A program made the translations under genes and the position numbers. The notes beneath the pieces are model-generated. The model was not told where the DNA came from, searched no databases, and saw only the letters and a program-made list of their open reading frames with translations. From IMG/VR virus record IMGVR_UViG_3300031087_000527, positions 145,384 through 209,383 of that record: 64,000 nucleotides of DNA. The stretch is one strand, 5' to 3'. This document shows positions 2,962 through 43,642 of the stretch, one piece after another. The stretch is from a virus (taxonomy: Duplodnaviria; Heunggongvirae; Uroviricota; Caudoviricetes). Positions within the stretch are counted from its first letter, which is position 1. Each line of letters begins with the position of its first letter.

Positions 2962-3037
2962 GCATTTGTAGCTCAGTTGGTAGAGCACTGGATTGAAAAT
3001 CCGGGTGTCGCAGGTTCAAGTCCTGCTGAATGCACCA
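2962..3037 (+). tRNA. tRNA-Phe (anticodon GAA)
   Basis: Acceptor GCATTTG/TGAATGC. D arm GCTC-AGTTGGTA-GAGC. Anticodon stem CTGGA/TCCGG with loop TTGAAAA. T arm GCAGG-TTCAAGT-CCTGC. Encoded CCA. Confidence 0.85.
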
Positions 3038-3272
3038 ACCGCTTCTCGGTTCGACTCCGAGTAAGACGCAAAAGAAAATTGGCGAAAATTGTACATAAGT
3101 AACCAATGAGTATGGATTGGATTTGCTGAAAAGCAAGCGTTAAAGTCAAGTAGAGGCATCTACTATAATCGGTGGGAGTAATCCCGTGATTTGTCGCCCG
3201 GCGGCGATGTTGACGGATAGGGTTCGAGTCCCTGCAGCGGTGCTAATTTAATAAGCAAAGAGGCGAATAAAA

Positions 3273-9687: not shown

Positions 9688-9762
9688 GATTTTTTAGCTC
9701 AACGGGTAGAGCATTGGCGGGAGAATCCGCTGACGACGTAGGTTCGAGTCCTGCAGAAATCA
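9688..9762 (+). tRNA. tRNA-like gene with 6-nt anticodon-region loop (GGCGG-GAGAAT-CCGCT); probably a pseudo-tRNA
   Basis: Acceptor GATTTTT/AGAAATC. D arm GCTC-AACGGGTA-GAGC. T arm GTAGG-TTCGAGT-CCTGC. No encoded CCA. Confidence 0.4.
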
Positions 9763-9892
9763 CCTGTTTTATTAGGTTGCGTCCGACAACGTGAGTGGAT
9801 GTGAAAGGTAATAGCACGTTTGGAGCGAAACCAGACTTTCCTATTATCGTTTAAGAGGTGGGCCGATACAACACCTAACCTGATAAGACTAT

Positions 9893-29740: not shown

Positions 29741-29836
29741 ATCATTATCTAAAAAAGAGAGCGCCTTGCAGGGCGCTTTTTTATACATTAAGTATCGTGC
29801 TTTTTTCTTTCATGTGGTGAAACAGTTAAAATTATA

Positions 29837-29850
29837 GCAACGAACGCAAC
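29837..29850. repeat. left inverted repeat GCAACGAACGCAAC flanking tnpB
   Basis: Exact reverse complement of GTTGCGTTCGTTGC at 31409..31422. Confidence 0.6.
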
Positions 29851-29916
29851 ATATTAAACATGTTTGATTTTTCTTCTTTTTTATTATAGTATCCTTTTAT
29901 AAATTACGGGGATATT

Positions 29917-31377
29917 ATGACGCAGACTTACTTTATTAAACACGATTATGACAGAACAGTTCAGCCGTTCTGGAATGAACAGTGTCTTAAAATATCTCAA
30001 AACCTTTTTCTCCCCTGCACCGAAAATAATATCCCTAATTTTAAAACTCATTACCTCTCTTCTTTGATCCGTAAGCTTACACCCGTTCATTCTTATCACT
30101 TTCCTTTATTCTTTAAATCTTATGTTATGTCTGCGCCTGATATTGTGGTTAAAGCCGTAAGGAAAGTGCGCTTTTATTTTACCTCGACTGAACAAAGACT
30201 TAAATATGAGCAAATGATGATGGTTGCTCGCAGAGCCTACAATCTTGCGGTTGATATGTGTAATAACAGAGAATTTATCGATGAGCAGGGGAAACCTGTT
30301 GATATCAGAATTCCCATCAGAGATAAAGTAAAAAAAGAAAGTGCTGAAAATAATTATGTTTTTGACACTAATGTCTGCGATCAGGCTGTCAGGATAGCTA
30401 AGTCTGAGTTTATCACTCTCTGTAAAAATAACAAAAAGAAGAAGAATACAACATTATTCACGAGTTTCTCACGACTAGGCTTCAAAAGCCGTAAAGACAA
30501 AAAACAGACCTTTTCCCATCCCCGGATGGGAAAAGAGGGTTCCGTCTGTATAAAATCGTTGGGAAGCATCAGGCTGACGGAAAAGCTGCCTGATGAATGC
30601 TATGGCAAAAATGTTGAGGTAACAATGGAGTATGGCAGATGGTTCATCTGCGTCCAGAAAAATATAGAGATAAAAGGAAACCGTTTAGATTGTTCCGAAA
30701 GCCAAGGGCCAAATAAAACGGTTTCTGAAAAAGAAGTGAAAGTGATTGCTCTTGATCCGGGAAGCAGGACGTTTTTAACAGGATTCAGCGAGAAAGAAGT
30801 TATCGTTTATGGTAAGGATTATTCTATAAAATGCTTACTACCATTGGCAAAGAAGATGCGTGAGCTGTATTCTTTGCGTGAGAGGTTAAAGAAGCATGAG
30901 CTATACAGAAAGGAAAGCCTGGATAATCCGCAGTGGATAAACGATACGTTTAGGCATATAGAAAACAGCCTGAATAGGCTGTCCTGTAAGCGTCAGGATC
31001 TTGTTAATCATCTGCACAGGACTGTAGTTTATGATATAGTGATGAGCTACGATGTGATTTATCTTCCTGATTTCGAAACCAAGTCTATGGTAAAGACTAA
31101 GGGGAGAAGAATAGGCCGTAAAGCTGTTCATAACATGCTTTCTCTGAGTCATTATATTTTTAAGGAATTTCTGCTGTGGACAGCAAAGAAATACGGTAAG
31201 GAAGTCATTATCGTTAACGAGAGTTATACGAGTAAAACCCAAAGCTGGAACGGAGTGGTAAATGAAAAGCTGGGATCATCGAGGTTGATGAAAGACGGCA
31301 AAAGAATAATAAACAGAGATATCAATGGTGCAAGGAATATTTACCTGAAGCACATATCTCAGTTAACTAACATTTAG
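29917..31377 (+). CDS. tnpB: TnpB-like RuvC nuclease (IS200/IS605 OrfB family), zinc-finger cysteines absent; alternative start 30127 gives 416 aa
   Basis: N-terminal VRKVRFYFTSTEQ (KFRLYPT.EQ-like). RuvC-I VIALDPGSRTF. RuvC-II YLPDFETKSM. RuvC-III NRDINGARNI. Where CxxC...CxxC is expected the sequence reads TSKTQSWNG...MKDGKRI with no cysteine. Confidence 0.85.
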   Translation: MTQTYFIKHDYDRTVQPFWNEQCLKISQNLFLPCTENNIPNFKTHYLSSLIRKLTPVHSYHFPLFFKSYVMSAPDIVVKAVRKVRFYFTSTEQRLKYEQMMMVARRAYNLAVDMCNNREFIDEQGKPVDIRIPIRDKVKKESAENNYVFDTNVCDQAVRIAKSEFITLCKNNKKKKNTTLFTSFSRLGFKSRKDKKQTFSHPRMGKEGSVCIKSLGSIRLTEKLPDECYGKNVEVTMEYGRWFICVQKNIEIKGNRLDCSESQGPNKTVSEKEVKVIALDPGSRTFLTGFSEKEVIVYGKDYSIKCLLPLAKKMRELYSLRERLKKHELYRKESLDNPQWINDTFRHIENSLNRLSCKRQDLVNHLHRTVVYDIVMSYDVIYLPDFETKSMVKTKGRRIGRKAVHNMLSLSHYIFKEFLLWTAKKYGKEVIIVNESYTSKTQSWNGVVNEKLGSSRLMKDGKRIINRDINGARNIYLKHISQLTNI

Positions 31378-31437
31378 GTGCTTCGCCTTAGCCGGAACTG
31401 CGAATGCTGTTGCGTTCGTTGCGGGTTTAATGAAGAG
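31375..31437 (+). repeat. tnpB 3'-flanking conserved element (right-end or omega-RNA-like), copy 1
   Basis: Starts at the tnpB stop codon: TAGGTGCTTCGCCTTAGCCGGAACTGCGAATGCTGTTGCGTTCGTTGCGGGTTTAATGAAGAG. Contains the right inverted repeat. Related copies at 43312 and 37870. Confidence 0.6.
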
Positions 31438-31486
31438 TCAGGTAAAAGTAAAGATGATGGCAGCTATAATCAACAAAGTCGTGCAA

Positions 31487-31522
31487 TAAAAAAGCCTCCT
31501 ATGGAGGCCTTTATTTGTTTTG
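31487..31522. terminator. bidirectional rho-independent terminator (AAAAAGCCTCCTATGGAGGCCTTTATTTGTTTT)
   Basis: Hairpin flanked by an A-run and a T-run, between the convergent tnpB unit and the SPFH gene. Confidence 0.6.
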
Positions 31523-37825: not shown

Positions 37826-37869
37826 AAAATAGTTGAATGTCATGTTCTGGACTGCTATACTGTCATTAC

Positions 37870-37921
37870 GGTGAGGTTAGCCGGAACATGAAAGTAAATT
37901 TAATTAAATGAGGTTAGTAAA
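37870..37921 (+). repeat. partial copy of the tnpB-flank element, forming the 5' leader of a small basic protein gene
   Basis: GGTGAGGTTAGCCGGAAC...AAAGTAAATTTAATTAAATGAGG resembles copy 1 (GCCTTAGCCGGAAC...GGGTTTAATGAAGAG). Confidence 0.4.
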
Positions 37922-38071
37922 ATGCAAGGCTCTGCTGGCGTTCGTGTAGAAAAGTTTGGTAAAGATAAACGTGACAGTCGTGGTGGTGAGTTCGGTGGTA
38001 AACAGGATTCACGTAAAAAAGGCAAAGTTCAACGTGGAAAACGTCGTGATGACGAGCAAAGCGGTTTCTAA
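37922..38071 (+). CDS. small basic protein (49 aa), paralogue of 43402..43551
   Basis: GAGGTTAG SD. MQGSAGVRVEKFGKDKRDSRGG...KVQRGKRRDDEQSGF shares VRVEKFxK with its paralogue. Terminator GGCTGCTTCGGCAGCC follows. Confidence 0.55.
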   Translation: MQGSAGVRVEKFGKDKRDSRGGEFGGKQDSRKKGKVQRGKRRDDEQSGF

Positions 38072-38144
38072 GCTGTAAGGGCTGCTTCGGCAGCCTTCTC
38101 TTAAATAGTCTGAATTGGTATATTTAAACTATTAGGAGAGAAAA

Positions 38145-38570
38145 ATGATTAAAGTAGATTACGAACACTCTGAGAATTTTATTGACGAAAATGATATCTT
38201 CGTTGGTTTTAATACAGAGTTCCAATGCTGTGAAAACTTCGGTTGGTATTTTAAAGATAACGACTGTATCGACGATGCTCAGGCGTTGTCAGAGAATGAA
38301 GATGTTGTAAGTAAGATTGACTTTGATATGGAAGGATGGGTGTTTGATACCTCCTACTGTGAATGCAAATACTACGATACAAAGACATTTACTTCTGTTG
38401 ATGCTGTAGTCTTTCGTATAATCAAAGAAGCTCAAGAAAAGTTTCTGTTCTTGTTTAATGTAGGTAATGGCATGTATGCGCACGATTTTTTCTTCGGTGC
38501 ATGCAAAGATGCCCACGCCAATAAAGCATTAAGTGATAATCAAGTGATTATTGAACAAGGTTCAGTATAA
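38145..38570 (+). CDS. hypothetical protein (141 aa)
   Basis: TAGGAGAGAAAA SD. Terminator 38577..38599. Confidence 0.8.
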   Translation: MIKVDYEHSENFIDENDIFVGFNTEFQCCENFGWYFKDNDCIDDAQALSENEDVVSKIDFDMEGWVFDTSYCECKYYDTKTFTSVDAVVFRIIKEAQEKFLFLFNVGNGMYAHDFFFGACKDAHANKALSDNQVIIEQGSV

Positions 38571-38616
38571 ACAATAAAGCACCGAAAGGTGCTTTTTTTA
38601 CATCAGGAGAAAAAAT

Positions 38617-38913
38617 ATGATCGAACAAATGATGAGTATTAAGCATATTTATGCGGATATTGAGAAAAAAGAAAAAGAAGCTCGCTTACAAATATCCGAA
38701 AATAGCAAAGGTATTCAAGAAATAGCGGCTCTTTATGAGCCAGAGCGTATTTCTCTAATCAAAGAAGCGCAGTCCGCCTTAAAAGAACATGGCTTCCTAT
38801 GGGATACGAAAAACTTAAGTGTTATAATGGTCAAGTTTAAACCTCTTTCATGGCGTGATCATGTTTTCTTTGTTGAGCGACATATCGGTCGATGCCTTAC
38901 CAATGTAGCTTAA
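38617..38913 (+). CDS. hypothetical protein (98 aa)
   Basis: CAGGAGAAAAA SD. Confidence 0.75.
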   Translation: MIEQMMSIKHIYADIEKKEKEARLQISENSKGIQEIAALYEPERISLIKEAQSALKEHGFLWDTKNLSVIMVKFKPLSWRDHVFFVERHIGRCLTNVA

Positions 38914-39007
38914 ATAGTCATGTTAATTATACTAAACAGGAAAAGATATTTTGCTTATCATTTTCTATAATAGTATAATATACTAAACAACAAATGAGGA
39001 TACTACT

Positions 39008-39367
39008 ATGTTAAAGCCATCTGTTTCTGCAAATGATCTGAAAGTAAAAAATGAGGCCATCGAGAATGAAAAATACAGCAGCCTCAACGCCGCATTTAAT
39101 AATATCGAGACGAAGCTTAAAAATAAGATGGAAACAATGAAGCAGGCTATTAGCTCTGGAGAGGTTGTAGCTCATGTTAAAATGACTAGGCCGCTGCGTG
39201 AAAATGATCTGAAGGAACTTCAGGATGCTTATCATGGATCAGGATTCTCGGTTGAGATGAAACGGGAAGAAGAACTGCAGGATTATACAGGTCAGCCTAA
39301 CAGATTTGGCAACTATATTCCTGCAGAGTATGACACTGTTTACGTGCTTACAGTCAGGATGATATAA
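39008..39367 (+). CDS. hypothetical protein (119 aa)
   Basis: TGAGGAT SD. Terminator 39371..39393. Confidence 0.75.
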   Translation: MLKPSVSANDLKVKNEAIENEKYSSLNAAFNNIETKLKNKMETMKQAISSGEVVAHVKMTRPLRENDLKELQDAYHGSGFSVEMKREEELQDYTGQPNRFGNYIPAEYDTVYVLTVRMI

Positions 39368-39442
39368 AAAAGGCCCTACGGGGCTTTTTTGCTTTTTGTA
39401 TTTCATGTGGTAAAATGCTTGTATTAATAATAGGAGAGAGAT

Positions 39443-39592
39443 ATGTCAGAGCATTATGTGCTAACACAAGAAGAGCTTGAGCAACTAACGGAGATTGCTC
39501 AGGAGACTTCAGTAGAAGTTCCTCATGGTCTAAGTCGTGAGGAAAGGCGTGAATGGTCAAAAAAAGAGCTTGAAGCTAAAAAAGATGCCTGA
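39443..39592 (+). CDS. small ORF (49 aa)
   Basis: TAGGAGAGAG SD. Its stop overlaps the next ATG (ATGCCTGA). Confidence 0.5.
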   Translation: MSEHYVLTQEELEQLTEIAQETSVEVPHGLSREERREWSKKELEAKKDA

Positions 39593-39857
39593 TATACTGA
39601 AATCTATTAAGTCAGATCAGGTGTTTAATATGCAAAAGGTGAAATGTGTAGAGTCAGGCAATAAGAAATATGAAATGGTTTTAGAATACGGAGAAACCTT
39701 AAACACGATTTCTTTGTCGGTATCAGAAAAAGGCGAGCAAGTAGTTCGTTACCTGAATCAGTTTTTGAGAAATGTGTCGGATACTGATGTGTTTAAAACC
39801 ATGTTGAAACATAACTTAGGCGAAGCGGAGAGTGCTGAGCTTATCGGTCAAATCTAA
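39585..39857 (+). CDS. hypothetical protein (90 aa)
   Basis: Translationally coupled ATG inside the GTG-initiated track ORF 39537. Confidence 0.55.
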   Translation: MPDILKSIKSDQVFNMQKVKCVESGNKKYEMVLEYGETLNTISLSVSEKGEQVVRYLNQFLRNVSDTDVFKTMLKHNLGEAESAELIGQI

Positions 39858-39877
39858 GCCTCTTCGGAGGCTTTTTT
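39858..39877 (+). terminator. rho-independent terminator (GCCTCTTCGGAGGC plus TTTTTT), third identical copy
   Basis: Same hairpin as 14729 and 15261. Abuts the 3' end of the minus-strand ferredoxin gene. Confidence 0.65.
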
Positions 39878-40115
39878 AATAGATGGCTATTTCGATATCG
39901 GTCTTAGGCACCGTACAGCAAAGAAGGAACTCGCCTGATGGTTTATAAGCCAAGTCATCTTTGACCATCATAATCTCTCCTGAGATCAGTTTGCTGTGGC
40001 AAGCGCCACAAAATCCATCCATGCAATTAAACTCTACAATGATTTCTTTAGCTAAAAGATAGTGAAGCAACGATGTGTGATTAAAGTCGGTTATTTTGAC
40101 ATGAATGTTTCTCAT
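39876..40115 (-). CDS. plant-type [2Fe-2S] ferredoxin-like protein (79 aa)
   Basis: Minus-strand ATG preceded by GAGGAG. Cys pattern C-x4-C-x2-C...29 aa...C (CMDGFCGACH ... LLCC). Confidence 0.75.
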   Translation of the reverse strand: MRNIHVKITDFNHTSLLHYLLAKEIIVEFNCMDGFCGACHSKLISGEIMMVKDDLAYKPSGEFLLCCTVPKTDIEIAIY

Positions 40116-40209
40116 ACGTACTCCTCATTAAGTATTCATAGTATAACACGCTTTCCAGCCAACTAAAAACCAAAATAAAAAAGATTTCGCTATGCAATCA
40201 TAGTTCGTA

Positions 40210-40440
40210 ATGCTAGAATGGCTTTTCAAATCAAGGAATAGGGCAAGGCTAAAAATGACATTTGGAAACGTGGAGTGTTCTTGGTTCAAGATAATGTTGT
40301 TGTTTGCATCGTTTTTAATAGGTGGCTTCATGGCTATAGATGCTCCGGCAATTAACGTTGCTGATAATGTTATTCGCTTTCTTCAAGGAGGTTCTATTTC
40401 TTTTGTGATCTGCTGTGTGATCATGGCTTTCATGCCGTAA
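40210..40440 (+). CDS. small membrane protein (76 aa)
   Basis: AGGGCAAGG SD. Two hydrophobic segments. Terminator 40471..40491. Confidence 0.5.
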   Translation: MLEWLFKSRNRARLKMTFGNVECSWFKIMLLFASFLIGGFMAIDAPAINVADNVIRFLQGGSISFVICCVIMAFMP

Positions 40441-40601
40441 ACATAAAAAATGAAACATTAGTTTATATTAAGCACCTTCGGGTGCTTTTTTATTTGTATT
40501 ATTAAAATACATTAAAAATAATTATGTATAGCTATTGTTATATTGTATTTTTTTTATTACTTTCGAATTGTATTTCATTAACAATAAGGAAGAAAGTATA
40601 A

Positions 40602-41162
40602 ATGAAGATTTTTATTAGGAATAGAAAGTTAAAAGGATTTTCTTTGTTAGAGTTATTATTGGTTTTAGGAATAATAGCGGCGCTAATAGTGGCGGCTTTT
40701 ATTGTTTATCCTAAAGTAAGAACTTCGCAAATAGTTGACGCTGAATCTAAAAATATTGCGACCATTAGAGCAGGATTACTGGCTTTATATTCATCCACAA
40801 CGAATATAACAACAGTAAATAATACAGTAGGAATAAATGCGCAAATATTTCCTGATAATATGTTAGTTCAAAGTGGTGGAACAGTATCAGATGTGGTTAA
40901 TGGTTTTAAAGGTAAAGTAAAGTTGTCTGCTACAAATTATGCTTCCTATGGTAAGGTTGTGTTCAATATAAGTTATGCCAACGTCCCTCAAGATGCTTGC
41001 GTTAAGCTTGTAACAGCAGTTGCTCCAAGTATGTCTATGGTTAACATAGGCGGTAGTTATGCTAAAAGTGATTTATCTAATGTTGACTGGAGTGTGGCAA
41101 ATGCAGCGACAGCATGTAACTCTGCCGGAACAAGCTCAACGATTGTTTTTTCATTTTATTAA
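40602..41162 (+). CDS. type IV pilin/pseudopilin-like protein (class III prepilin signal)
   Basis: AAGGAAGAAAG SD. N-terminus MKIFIRNRKLKG|FSLLELLLVLGIIAALIVAAFIVYP matches the prepilin peptidase site G/F-x-x-x-E followed by a hydrophobic helix. Confidence 0.8.
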   Translation: MKIFIRNRKLKGFSLLELLLVLGIIAALIVAAFIVYPKVRTSQIVDAESKNIATIRAGLLALYSSTTNITTVNNTVGINAQIFPDNMLVQSGGTVSDVVNGFKGKVKLSATNYASYGKVVFNISYANVPQDACVKLVTAVAPSMSMVNIGGSYAKSDLSNVDWSVANAATACNSAGTSSTIVFSFY

Positions 41163-41273
41163 ATCCTTAATCATGATTATTTCTAAAAGGCATACTTTCG
41201 CGGTGTGCCTTTTTATTTGCGATTAGAATATTATTTATGTTATTATGCTATTACTATATAAGAGGGTATAAAA

Positions 41274-41822
41274 ATGAATACGACAACGAAAAAGCGTCCT
41301 AAAATAACTGAAGAGTTTGTTTATGCGAAATCTGAAGGTGAGCTGTTAGTAGAGGAGATGGAAAAACTGTCGGCTGCAGGTGTTGAACGTAGCAGTATGG
41401 GGCGCAATCATCCAAATGAGCGCGAGTTGCCAGTGAGAAAAAATGCTGACGGCTTGATTGATGTTCATTCATTTATTTCTGAAGCGCATTTTGAAGGCTA
41501 TATCAAGAAAGAGCTGGATCGTCCGGGCTTGTTCCCACTAAAGAAAAAATGGAATGTTGGTGGCACAGGTGCTGATGGCTATGGTGGGGAAACTGTTATA
41601 GAAGCTGAGCGCGAGCCTAAGTATCCTGAAGCTCTGTTAGATATTCTTGAGTTATTGCGTCCGAATATGACGGCTATACAGATTGAGCGCGTATTGTCTG
41701 GTTTGGAGTATTCAGAGCATACAGATACTGAAGTTGGCTATTACTACGACAAACACGATGTCATGATTCATGAGTATGAAACGCAAAGTTTACTTGAATC
41801 GCTGAAAAAGACATTCGGTTAA
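41274..41822 (+). CDS. hypothetical protein (182 aa), paralogue of 41901
   Basis: AAGAGGG SD. Shared C-terminal domain (KKW.VGG...). Confidence 0.85.
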   Translation: MNTTTKKRPKITEEFVYAKSEGELLVEEMEKLSAAGVERSSMGRNHPNERELPVRKNADGLIDVHSFISEAHFEGYIKKELDRPGLFPLKKKWNVGGTGADGYGGETVIEAEREPKYPEALLDILELLRPNMTAIQIERVLSGLEYSEHTDTEVGYYYDKHDVMIHEYETQSLLESLKKTFG

Positions 41823-41900
41823 AGTATTGCTAAAATAGTAATAGAAAAGCATATCAGTTTCTGGTATGCTTTTTTTATTGCATAAAACAAAGAGGTTAGC

Positions 41901-42263
41901 ATGATTGATATTAATAGCATTAAATATGCCGAAGAATTGGAAAAACTAGTTGAGGAAGAGTTGGGACGTAAAGTGTTCCCAATTGAAAAGAAATGGGTTT
42001 CCGGCGGTGTGGTTCGAGGTTGGACTGGTACTGAGTCTCGTATTCCTGCTGAAGCAGAGCCTTTACATGATCCAGAAGAATGGATTGATGTGCTTGAGGT
42101 GATTTGTCCTAATATTAATTTCCTCCAGTATAAGCGTCTGGAAAGTAGAGGCCTGTGGGATGAAGATACTGATAGTAGAAATGATTACTATGAATGCGAA
42201 GAATACAAGATCAAACGTCTGAATACCGAAAATCTCTTAGATGCCTTGAAATCCATTTTTTAA
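41901..42263 (+). CDS. hypothetical protein (120 aa), shorter paralogue of 41274
   Basis: AAAGAGG SD. Aligns with the C-terminal half of 41274. Confidence 0.8.
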   Translation: MIDINSIKYAEELEKLVEEELGRKVFPIEKKWVSGGVVRGWTGTESRIPAEAEPLHDPEEWIDVLEVICPNINFLQYKRLESRGLWDEDTDSRNDYYECEEYKIKRLNTENLLDALKSIF

Positions 42264-42274
42264 GTGAGAAAACC

Positions 42275-42718
42275 ATGAACATTAAAGTTGTCTTCATCGT
42301 TGGCTTACCCGGAGCAGGGAAGACAACTTTACTAAAACAAATGGGTGATGGTTTTTGTATTGATGATTTATCCATTAACCTGGATAAATTGGATAACTTT
42401 AAACAGAATCCAGAACCAGTCCTGTATATTGCTGATCCGACTCTATGCATGGCTACTCAGGAAAGGGCTGAAACTTCTTTGAAGAAGATGCTGGGTTCAG
42501 ATTTTACTGTTGAGTCATTTCAATGGTGCTTCTTTGAAAATGATTTAGAGGCTTGCTGGGCAAATGTTGAAGCGCGTCAAGATAAAAGGAAAATCGATAT
42601 TCATTTCGTGAAGCATCTCTTTCGCTGCTATGCTGAGAACTATGATCTGGATAAGCAAGAGCTAATTCCCGTTTACAAAGGAAATCAAAATGTTTCTAAA
42701 AAATCCAGAAAAATATAG
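42275..42718 (+). CDS. P-loop NTPase / nucleotide-kinase-like protein (147 aa)
   Basis: Walker A VVFIVGLPGAGKTTLLKQ. Start at 42275 within the track ORF 42194. Confidence 0.75.
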   Translation: MNIKVVFIVGLPGAGKTTLLKQMGDGFCIDDLSINLDKLDNFKQNPEPVLYIADPTLCMATQERAETSLKKMLGSDFTVESFQWCFFENDLEACWANVEARQDKRKIDIHFVKHLFRCYAENYDLDKQELIPVYKGNQNVSKKSRKI

Positions 42719-43118
42719 CTATACATTAACTCTGGTTGATTCTGATATGCCTGATTATAAAGGAGAAGACTATATCAGGGATTTCTTCTCGGTTGATGGG
42801 AATCTATTAATAACACAACACGATCATAATGATAAAATGATTAGTCCAGACGCTATGTTGTGGGCGACACCTTATACACGTCATGAGGTTAAAACCATTC
42901 ATGATATCAAAGCGGCTTTATCTTTAAAAAGTATTTTTGTGGATGACTGCTATGATGAATCAGTGATTCTTTCAGACCTCTCAGAGTCAGACACTTTTAT
43001 CACACTCTTTGGAGACAGGCCTGTAAGCGACTTGTCGGATGATACAATTGCGTATTACGTTAAAGGCAAGCCCATAAAAGTAAGCGCGTCTGAGTTTTTT
43101 GAGGAAGTATTGGCTTAA
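42690..43118 (+). CDS. hypothetical protein (142 aa)
   Basis: AAAGGAAAT SD. Overlaps the previous gene by 29 nt. Confidence 0.7.
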   Translation: MFLKNPEKYSYTLTLVDSDMPDYKGEDYIRDFFSVDGNLLITQHDHNDKMISPDAMLWATPYTRHEVKTIHDIKAALSLKSIFVDDCYDESVILSDLSESDTFITLFGDRPVSDLSDDTIAYYVKGKPIKVSASEFFEEVLA

Positions 43119-43259
43119 AAACAAGCAAACTAACACGATGATCTCAAATAATGCTTGAACCACAAAAAGGCGATTGCTATACTTATTTCACTGGTTAGGG
43201 CGCACGCCCATGTTTTTTAAAAGAAGATTGAAGCAACTAACACAACAAAATGCGGTAAT

Positions 43260-43288
43260 TTAATATAAAATTTGCAATTTTATATTAA
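43260..43288. repeat. perfect 29-bp palindrome TTAATATAAAATTTGCAATTTTATATTAA
   Basis: 13-bp arms around TGCA, 23 nt upstream of tnpB-flank element copy 3. Confidence 0.7.
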
Positions 43289-43311
43289 ATATATTATATC
43301 TTTTACTACAA

Positions 43312-43383
43312 TAGGTGCTTGGCCTTAATCGGAACTGCGATTTTAACAGGTTTTGTTGTGATCGTTGCGATTTAAATCAAGAG
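43312..43383 (+). repeat. solo copy of the tnpB-flank element (no tnpB), leader of a small basic protein gene
   Basis: TAGGTGCTTGGCCTTAATCGGAACTGCGATTTTAACAGGTTTTGTTGTGATCGTTGCGATTTAAATCAAGAG is collinear with 31375..31437, including the TAGGTGCTT start and the GTTG.G..CGTTGCG core. Confidence 0.6.
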
Positions 43384-43401
43384 ATAAATAAGGACGATAA
43401 A

Positions 43402-43551
43402 ATGTTAAACTCTTCTTCTATCCGCGTAGAGAAATTTGAGAAATCGAAGAAAATGGCTCGCAAAGAAGTCGTAGCTAAGCGAGATAATAAAAAATTGAAT
43501 AAGGTTGTTCGCGGTCGTCGTGAAGAACTAGAGCTTGAAGATGTTTATTAA
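43402..43551 (+). CDS. small basic protein (49 aa), paralogue of 37922..38071
   Basis: AAGGACGAT SD. MLNSSSIRVEKFEKSKKMARKEVVAKRDNKKLNKVVRGRREELELEDVY. Terminator GGTCGCTTAGCGGCC plus T-run. Confidence 0.6.
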   Translation: MLNSSSIRVEKFEKSKKMARKEVVAKRDNKKLNKVVRGRREELELEDVY

Positions 43552-43642
43552 AATAAAGGTCGCTTAGCGGCCTTTTTTATTGCTTTGGATTTCTGAAATC
43601 TGTATAATGACAACCATGTTAATGAACTCTATGGTGATTATG

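Follow-up and report, generated by a model that had tools for sequence, protein, structure and literature searches.

A recurring sequence in a large human-gut phage as the probable right end of IS607-type TnpB elements, one of them a gene-less miniature

The 64,000-nucleotide stretch analysed here, referred to as the window, comes from a large Caudoviricetes phage of a human-gut metagenome (IMG/VR virus record IMGVR_UViG_3300031087_000527, positions 145,384 to 209,383). A short sequence adjoins the 3′ end of its tnpB gene and recurs, without tnpB, ahead of a gene for a 49-residue protein. An earlier note, made from the sequence alone, had listed three copies (copies 1 to 3) and offered two explanations: solo right ends or omega-RNA-like relics marking sites that TnpB targets, or a regulatory leader of a small-protein family into which tnpB had inserted. 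We conclude, with a probability of about 0.8, that the recurring sequence is the right end (RE) of an IS607-type TnpB family, with copy 1 belonging to a full-length but non-autonomous element and copy 3 to a gene-less miniature. This replaces the idea of a shared regulatory leader or targeted site with well-documented transposon ends. The insertion boundaries, presence/absence polymorphism, end architecture, TnpA-bearing relatives and RNA covariation were all observed directly. The two elements and their immediate surroundings show the following features.

29826–31437, plus strand: full-length IS607-family element without tnpA, 1612 bp, the origin of copy 1
29837–29851, plus strand: left-end subterminal repeat arm GCAACGAACGCAACA, two CGCAAC hexamers, exact reverse complement of 31408–31422
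29917–31377, plus strand: tnpB, 486 aa, IS607/Fanzor2-like ‘DPG’ type
31373–31437, plus strand: right-end RNA module, copy 1, adjoining the tnpB stop codon (31375–31377)
31438–31457, plus strand: flank of copy 1, prospective guide TCAGGTAAAAGTAAAGATGA
31454–31489, plus strand: 11-codon open reading frame (ORF) after copy 1, in pre-existing intergenic sequence
43224–43383, plus strand: gene-less miniature IS607-family element, 160 bp, containing copy 3
43233–43247, plus strand: left-end repeat arm of the miniature, GCAACTAACACAACA, 13/15 complementary to 43354–43368
43310–43383, plus strand: right-end RNA module of the miniature, copy 3

Both elements can be compared with empty sites in relatives of the window phage. 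Three of these (L021, L022 and L023; loci carry L numbers and proteins P numbers) are syntenic with it, one being from a 260-kb contig, and the flanks are 90–95% identical in L021, L022, L023, L018 and L019. The flanks of copy 1 map contiguously to L021 249–1523 and 1525–2518 (93–95% identity), and the tnpB site is empty in three relatives. For copy 3, the corresponding flanks are L021 14867–15400 and 15401–15631, which are directly adjacent (15400/15401), and the leader of the downstream small-protein gene (gene B) is uninterrupted, with the miniature absent, in L018, L019/L020 and L021. Neither insertion is accompanied by a target duplication: a single AT or AG at the empty site compares with AG at both junctions in the window (29824–29825, on the flank side, and 31436–31437, the last two bases of the full-length element; 43222–43223 and 43382–43383 for the miniature). 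Because the relatives’ flanks adjoin without duplication, these alignments identify both copies as precise insertions, at 29826–31437 and 43224–43383. A contig of a different sequencing run (L119) is 100% identical to the window, miniature included.

The empty sites also bear on the view that the element is a native cis-regulatory leader, or a small RNA, of the 49-residue family, tnpB having entered a third copy. Copy 3 does lie inside the 5′ untranslated region (UTR) of gene B, and the order of element, Shine–Dalgarno sequence (SD), short ORF and terminator is the same each time. However, the leader of gene B runs on uninterrupted in four independent relatives, its flanks precisely adjacent where the segment is missing; three relatives have an empty tnpB site; and a family member found elsewhere, P0127 (L010, L011), has its own promoter and an unrelated leader without the element. 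The element also stands behind tnpB in unrelated genomes and contexts, even inside ORFs. The short ORF after copy 1, which the earlier note had regarded as a remnant, is already present at the empty sites of L021 and L022; it is neither part of the element nor what is left of a third paralogue. We therefore consider a native leader contradicted and extremely unlikely. Nor are the small-protein genes a common target flagged by the element: only one of the two paralogues has it, and the association is one chance insertion before one paralogue.

The same left and right ends accompany TnpB homologues in unrelated surroundings, at amino acid identities of 95% (L002), 77% (L003), 76% (L004), 73% (L006), 59% (L009) and 38% (Vibrio phage F88, L001). 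The link with tnpB drawn in the earlier note thus holds in other genomes, with the RE following genes for TnpB proteins of 36–95% identity at at least 20 loci. L002 carries the element inside a DUF6012 gene, for which one continuous Pfam match (profile 1–197 of 200) returns once the element is removed; a second ORF is split in frame by the element in L006. A comparison of the miniature with 12 full-length elements gives ..AC[NG]/TT... for the left junction and ...AAG[NG]/flank for the right one (slash, element boundary). The exchange dinucleotide covaries between the two junctions, with AG at both in most elements, GG at both in L027 and TG at both in L038.

The ends are organized as in IS607, which has no terminal inverted repeats, subterminal imperfect repeats and short direct repeats, and inserts by a 2-bp exchange without target duplication (PMC6188088). 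In the full-length element, a left-to-right inverted repeat with perfect 15-nt arms (29837–29851 and 31408–31422) brackets tnpB; 11 nt separate the left arm from its tip of the element and 15 nt the right arm from the other, and the tips carry no inverted repeats. Each arm consists of two hexamers, GTTGCG-N3-GTTGCG, which are seen in copy 1 as direct hexamers GTTGCG-TTC-GTTGCG at 31409–31423. One change relative to copy 1 is found on both arms of the miniature, and in diverged elements (F88, L027, L037 and L004) the subterminal arms change together at both ends. The hexamers of the RE, mirrored at the left end, would be bound by dimers of an IS607 TnpA. Insertion proceeds by exchange of 2 bp at an NG dinucleotide without target duplication, and mobilization would occur in trans through a TnpA encoded elsewhere.

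Two relatives retain a recombinase. The Vibrio breoganii element L105 encodes a serine-recombinase TnpA (as a helix–turn–helix fragment and a resolvase domain, the latter in fusion with TnpB); the sequence at its left end is ACAG/TTGATCAAA...AACAAACGCAACA, and its RE and copy 3 end in the same 21 nt. Viral contig L106 encodes TnpA (87% identical to the L105 protein) and TnpB and has an RE scoring 81 bits. L105 and L106 are full IS607 copies with the same left end and RE as the window elements. A fusion to a resolvase domain is present in the TnpB homologue P0054. L106 came from one of the pattern scans of viral contigs, another of which was empty, and a protein scan of viral contigs gave no match. 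Megablast and tblastn searches of INPHARED with the tnpB region gave no close relative of the window phage, and the gene B protein had no match there; tblastn with TnpB returned only relatives from Vibrio phages (28–38% identity).

The window elements thus share with IS607, IS1535 and ISXfa1 a TnpB of the ‘DPG’ type, the absence of inverted repeats at the tips, subterminal imperfect inverted and short direct repeats, insertion without target duplication (with one dinucleotide common to the two junctions and the empty site) and an RE that encodes a predicted RNA beside the tnpB 3′ end, to which L105 and L106 add the serine recombinase. They differ in lacking tnpA, in the loss of the zinc-finger cysteines, in being hosted by a large gut phage and in their exchange dinucleotide, which is GG in IS607 and ISXfa1 but AG (NG) in this lineage.

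The tnpB product matches Pfam Cas12f1-like_TNB (PF07282; 5e-12) and PHROG 506 transposase (1e-30), and among solved structures the one nearest to it in sequence is that of the TnpB-like protein L79 of mimivirus (9b0l; E = 7e-28). The RuvC residues D280, E435 and D468 are invariant across 24 TnpB homologues. With L79 the window TnpB shares the DPG, NE.Y/L.T.KT and DRD.N.A.NI motifs, whereas L79, which comes from a eukaryotic giant virus, retains the CxxC...CxxC zinc finger that the window clade lacks. The cysteines have been lost in the whole clade of 24 homologues (window 31230–31330, residues ~438–470), which reads KTRSWDG...IKD....VDRD at that position with the RuvC triad intact.

Other interpretations of the full-length element were considered. 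No group I intron family reached the Rfam gathering score in the window, and an IStron is also ruled out because the left end is too short (~90 nt from the left tip to the tnpB start).

Some of the related elements have features of their own. In F88, a Vibrio phage of 136 kb, the element (L001 2797–4499) has the gene for the tail assembly chaperone on one side and that for the tape measure on the other, and it contains TTTGCG rather than GTTGCG hexamers in both arms, for which a change in the second RE hairpin compensates; the F88 record also holds a second tnpB place. In some elements, one to two copies of a hairpin unit of about 40 nt (GTTTTTACGCAA-N-TTACGTTTTA) stand between the tnpB stop codon and the RE module (L003 11465–11548, L004 5468–5552 and L006 5468–5510); neither the window copy nor L009 has this unit.

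The miniature retains a left-end arm, some 25 nt from the 3′ end of tnpB and the entire right-end module, and lies between the native promoter and hairpin of gene B and the gene B SD. Copies 1 and 3 share the 19-mer GCCTTARYCGGAACTGCGA, which occurs nowhere else in the window (0.01 expected). Their homology, proposed in the earlier note, is confirmed by a hidden Markov model (HMM) built from nine REs of other genomes (E = 2e-14 for copy 1 and E = 3e-11 for copy 3), which also matches the left arm of copy 1 at 0.011. The similarity is not confined to the 3′ flank of tnpB: repeat arms are present at both ends. The TTTAA..AAGAG motif is part of the element and not of the SD region of the small-protein genes. 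The description of copy 3 as a tnpB-less right-end or omega-RNA-like sequence was right in kind, but it is a complete miniature with both ends and their arms, not a solo RE.

With its two ends, absence of coding capacity and presence/absence polymorphism (it is absent in four relatives), the miniature resembles miniature inverted-repeat and palindrome-associated transposable elements (MITEs and PATEs). For IS200/IS605, gene-less derivatives have been described whose omega RNAs are used in trans (Meers et al., PMC10055086). Like these, the miniature consists of two ends of a TnpB transposon and a guide-RNA module and would need TnpA and TnpB in trans. The parent of PATEs is IS200/IS605, which uses single-stranded DNA and a Y1 transposase, whereas that of the miniature is IS607, which uses double-stranded DNA and a serine recombinase; the miniature also differs in being a single copy and in its location in a phage 5′ UTR. 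No further gene-less copies were found among ~120 loci, with scans of public collections that were limited in extent, except for a second RE in L035, and the window contains one miniature. In L035, RE modules at 2882–2949 and 3149–3216 lie 267 nt apart downstream of one tnpB; the second of them may represent either a right end on its own or the remnant of a tandem arrangement.

The RE is predicted to fold, as RNA, into two hairpins (P1 and P2) and a pseudoknot. In copy 1, P1 spans ~31376–31388, P2 pairs 31398–31404 with 31415–31421, and the pseudoknot joins the loop CUUCG (31381–31385) to the tail UGAAG (31431–31435). In copy 3, P1 spans ~43313–43325, P2 pairs 43335–43341 with 43361–43367 through the compensated change CGAU/AUCG, and the pseudoknot is CUUGG/UCAAG. 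In the window, a two-hairpin covariance model run with filters off recovers copies 1 and 3 (66 and 51 bits) and nothing else. Among 23 REs gathered from the loci by the covariance model, in an alignment fitted to that model, P1 and P2 are paired in 90.5% of cells compared with 74% in shuffles and 31–54% with the partners slid, and 8 of the 12 pairs have both-sided changes. The pseudoknot, between a P1 loop CUUNN and an NNAAG tail before the terminal dinucleotide, retains 5/5 pairs in all 23 REs through six loop/tail combinations. The model covers the 3′ 62–65 nt only, and a longer alignment of tnpB 3′ ends revealed no convincing stems upstream of P1. The conserved sequence can also be read as coding, with GTG-initiated frames of 51 and 78 aa that specify similar Cys-rich peptides; the frame is closed by a stop codon in F88. 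We dropped this interpretation because RNA covariation explains the conservation of the element. An ATG inside the RE (AATGAAGAG), in frame in L003 and not in L002, is probably an incidental start.

The fold is consistent with the 3′ portion of a TnpB guide RNA (an omega RNA or right-element RNA, reRNA), made up of P1, P2 and the pseudoknot, in which the P1 loop pairs with the 5 nt before the terminal dinucleotide, and with the adjacent flank as the putative guide. It resembles the omega RNA and reRNA of ISDra2 and ISXfa1, and the RNAs of Fanzor proteins, in its position at the tnpB 3′ end, in reaching the element boundary and in placing hairpins and a pseudoknot beside the putative guide, which would likewise be supplied by the flank. 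It differs in having no sequence or Rfam match to the described RNAs and is predicted only. The covarying hairpins could instead be DNA structures or recombinase sites that give rise to no guide RNA. P2 overlaps in part with the hexamer repeats, which have their mirror image at the left end, and IS607 TnpA binds subterminal repeats (PMC6188088), yet serine recombinases act on double-stranded DNA and need no hairpins. Moreover, P1 and the pseudoknot covary although neither falls within the repeat arms, and the interval from the tnpB 3′ end up to the boundary is the usual location of a TnpB guide RNA; the reRNA of IS607 type, ~150 nt in the one measured case, extends past the element boundary (PMC10711439). 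We regard a purely DNA-level role as quite unlikely.

Copy 3 might also be the relic of an internal deletion, in place, of a full-length tnpB element, inert and without a function in RNA or transposition. This is consistent with the single copy seen, with the ~25 nt of tnpB 3′ coding end that it retains and with two uncompensated mismatches between its repeat arms. By contrast, the changes specific to copy 3 in P2 and the pseudoknot are compensated, leaving the RNA fold intact, and its RE tail matches another sublineage (the L105 type) than that of the resident full-length copy. On this evidence we consider an inert relic possible, if on the whole not probable; an origin by deletion is in any case compatible with our explanation of what copy 3 is.

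Under the guide-RNA interpretation, the RE would be transcribed and processed, and TnpB, guided by the resulting RNA, would cut empty sites in co-infecting relatives, after which the element would be copied, a form of homing. The putative guide targets of copies 1 and 3 are TCAGGTAAAAGTAAAG and ATAAATAAGGATGATA. The first 14 nt of the copy 1 flank match the L021 empty site (14/14), which is there preceded by AAACAT, and the copy 3 flank matches the L018, L019 and L021 sites at 19 of 20 positions, after AAAAAG or AAATAG. The candidate guide-adjacent motif (AC-NG?) is taken solely from the flanks, and the two putative guides have no further matches within the window beyond those expected by chance.

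A more specific proposal, which we think doubtful, is that the miniature is a working guide-only module. It would be read through from the gene B promoter, and its omega-type RNA, on the TnpB of the full-length copy in trans, would direct cutting of relatives without the insertion, so that the miniature would copy itself in. The guide would be the ribosome-binding site and start region of gene B (ATAAATAAGGACGATAAAAT), which the relatives’ gene B leader matches at 19/20. A candidate σ70 promoter inside the miniature (TTGCAA-17-TATATC) fails a consensus scan, so the proposal relies on the native upstream promoter. If this is correct, a large phage would contain, in the miniature, a device for homing or competition that has no gene of its own, and TnpB bound to the gene B 5′ UTR might in addition lower the translation of that gene.

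Several observations weigh against the interpretation of the two copies as IS607-type elements with a guide-RNA module. No serine recombinase TnpA that could be named as the mobilizing enzyme was found by tblastn in the 64-kb window; because the window lacks one, both copies are classed as non-autonomous. Only one copy of the miniature was seen, which leaves room for deletion in place instead of movement as a miniature, and its left flank reads AA[AG] compared with AC[NG] beside 11 of 12 full-length elements. The RE-side sequence of the miniature is ~97 nt long compared with ~150 nt for the IS607 reRNA, which makes its competence as a guide uncertain. The L021 empty site for copy 1 has AT where the model expects AG. 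Finally, no Rfam family matches the RE RNA, and loose thresholds gave only chance terminator-like matches.

The interpretation as IS607-type elements provides base-exact boundaries, empty sites and a covariation-backed RNA model for a previously unmodelled lineage of zinc-finger-less IS607-type TnpB proteins. It also shows polymorphic TnpB insertions in large gut phages, with filled and empty alleles in genomes that are 90–95% identical, a setting of the kind that a test of RNA-guided homing between co-infecting phages requires, and it supplies a natural gene-less IS607 derivative with an intact RNA module.

The third sequence listed in the earlier note, copy 2, precedes a second small-protein gene (gene A). 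The two genes and their leaders are as follows.

37833–37921, plus strand: native promoter of gene A (TTGAAT-17-TATACT, 37833–37861) and leader including copy 2 (37870–37921)
37922–38071, plus strand: gene A, small basic protein, 49 aa
43155–43209, plus strand: native promoter of gene B (TTGAAC-17-TATACT, 43155–43183) and 5′ hairpin (GGGCGCACGCCC, 43198–43209), from a promoter scan
43402–43551, plus strand: gene B, small basic protein, 49 aa, with a terminator at 43555–43575

The two proteins are paralogues, as previously suggested (44% identity, E = 1e-10), and each gene has its own SD and its own terminator. The gene B promoter and 5′ hairpin are located upstream of the miniature insertion, and both are kept in relatives without the miniature. 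The leaders of the family have a common plan: a promoter, a short variable hairpin, an AT-rich spacer and GATAAAT(G/A)AGG..TAAAATG. Because the leaders share this plan, comparison identifies copy 2 as the ordinary native leader of gene A and not as a copy of the element; the portion of it nearest the SD can be aligned with the leader native to gene B. The claim that copies 2 and 3 each stand just upstream of a small-protein gene accordingly survives for copy 3 and gene B, whereas copy 2 is no copy.

What copy 2 has in common with copy 1 is the 11-mer TTAGCCGGAAC and an AT-rich stretch (Smith–Waterman comparison with shuffles, P = 0.006); its similarity to copy 3 is not significant (P = 0.16). 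The shared 11-mer might suggest a third, ancient and strongly eroded miniature, fixed in the lineage after losing both repeat arms, and the region does open with AATAG/TTGAAT, resembling the left junction ACAG/TTGATA, and close with GAG before the SD. We consider this very unlikely. Copy 2 is undetected by the RE HMM at E ≤ 100 and by the RE covariance model at E ≤ 10, and it has no hexamer repeats, P1, P2 or pseudoknot. The region is present in all relatives, with the 11-mer broken in L021–L024, and relatives have GAAGCTTGCCGGAAC there; in a gene A orthologue that is 82% identical (L120), the 11-mer is absent and the leader contains a different hairpin, GTCAGAAATGAC. Neither the HMM nor the covariance model finds an RE module upstream of gene A orthologues.

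The 49-aa proteins have no matches in Pfam, NCBIfam, PHROG or the PDB, and an ArfA-like function, an idea derived from an RVEK..K.K motif, received an hhalign probability of 0.7%. We found no evidence tying the function of the small proteins to the TnpB element. Homologues are confined to related metagenomic contigs and the P0127 group. P0127 is a 48-aa member of the family, encoded at 3001–3147 in each of L010–L017 and on record for 308 contigs from human-gut metagenomes, some longer than 1 Mb. One source label is Escherichia coli; complete E. coli genomes gave no megablast match to the locus. Its neighbours are small ORFs without Pfam matches and dissimilar to the window.

In this phage lineage, RNA-guided-nuclease-type genes of several kinds are apparently gained and lost. 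On the minus strand, positions 1–747 of the window hold another tnpB, which differs in type and is truncated by the window edge; an RE of the IS607-type family seen at copies 1 and 3 is absent from it. Its product is 89% identical over 249 aa to a 547-aa TnpB of L022 (12527–14170), the gene for which occupies the position of a PilS-like pilin gene in L021 and L023 and is thus another polymorphic insertion. Upstream of a ferredoxin gene, L021 (10354–11610) and L022 (10294–11592) encode a protein with RRXRR and HNH domains (an IscB-like pair, by Pfam), which is 418 aa long in L021 and split into two ORFs in L022; the gene is absent at that position in L023, and the window has no ORF of such size at ~39860–39876. 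The phage’s cluster of 12–13 tRNAs includes one at window positions 9688–9764 to which ARAGORN assigns a four-base anticodon (agaa; Rfam tRNA score of 47 bits), which may be of the frameshift-suppressor type or a miscall.

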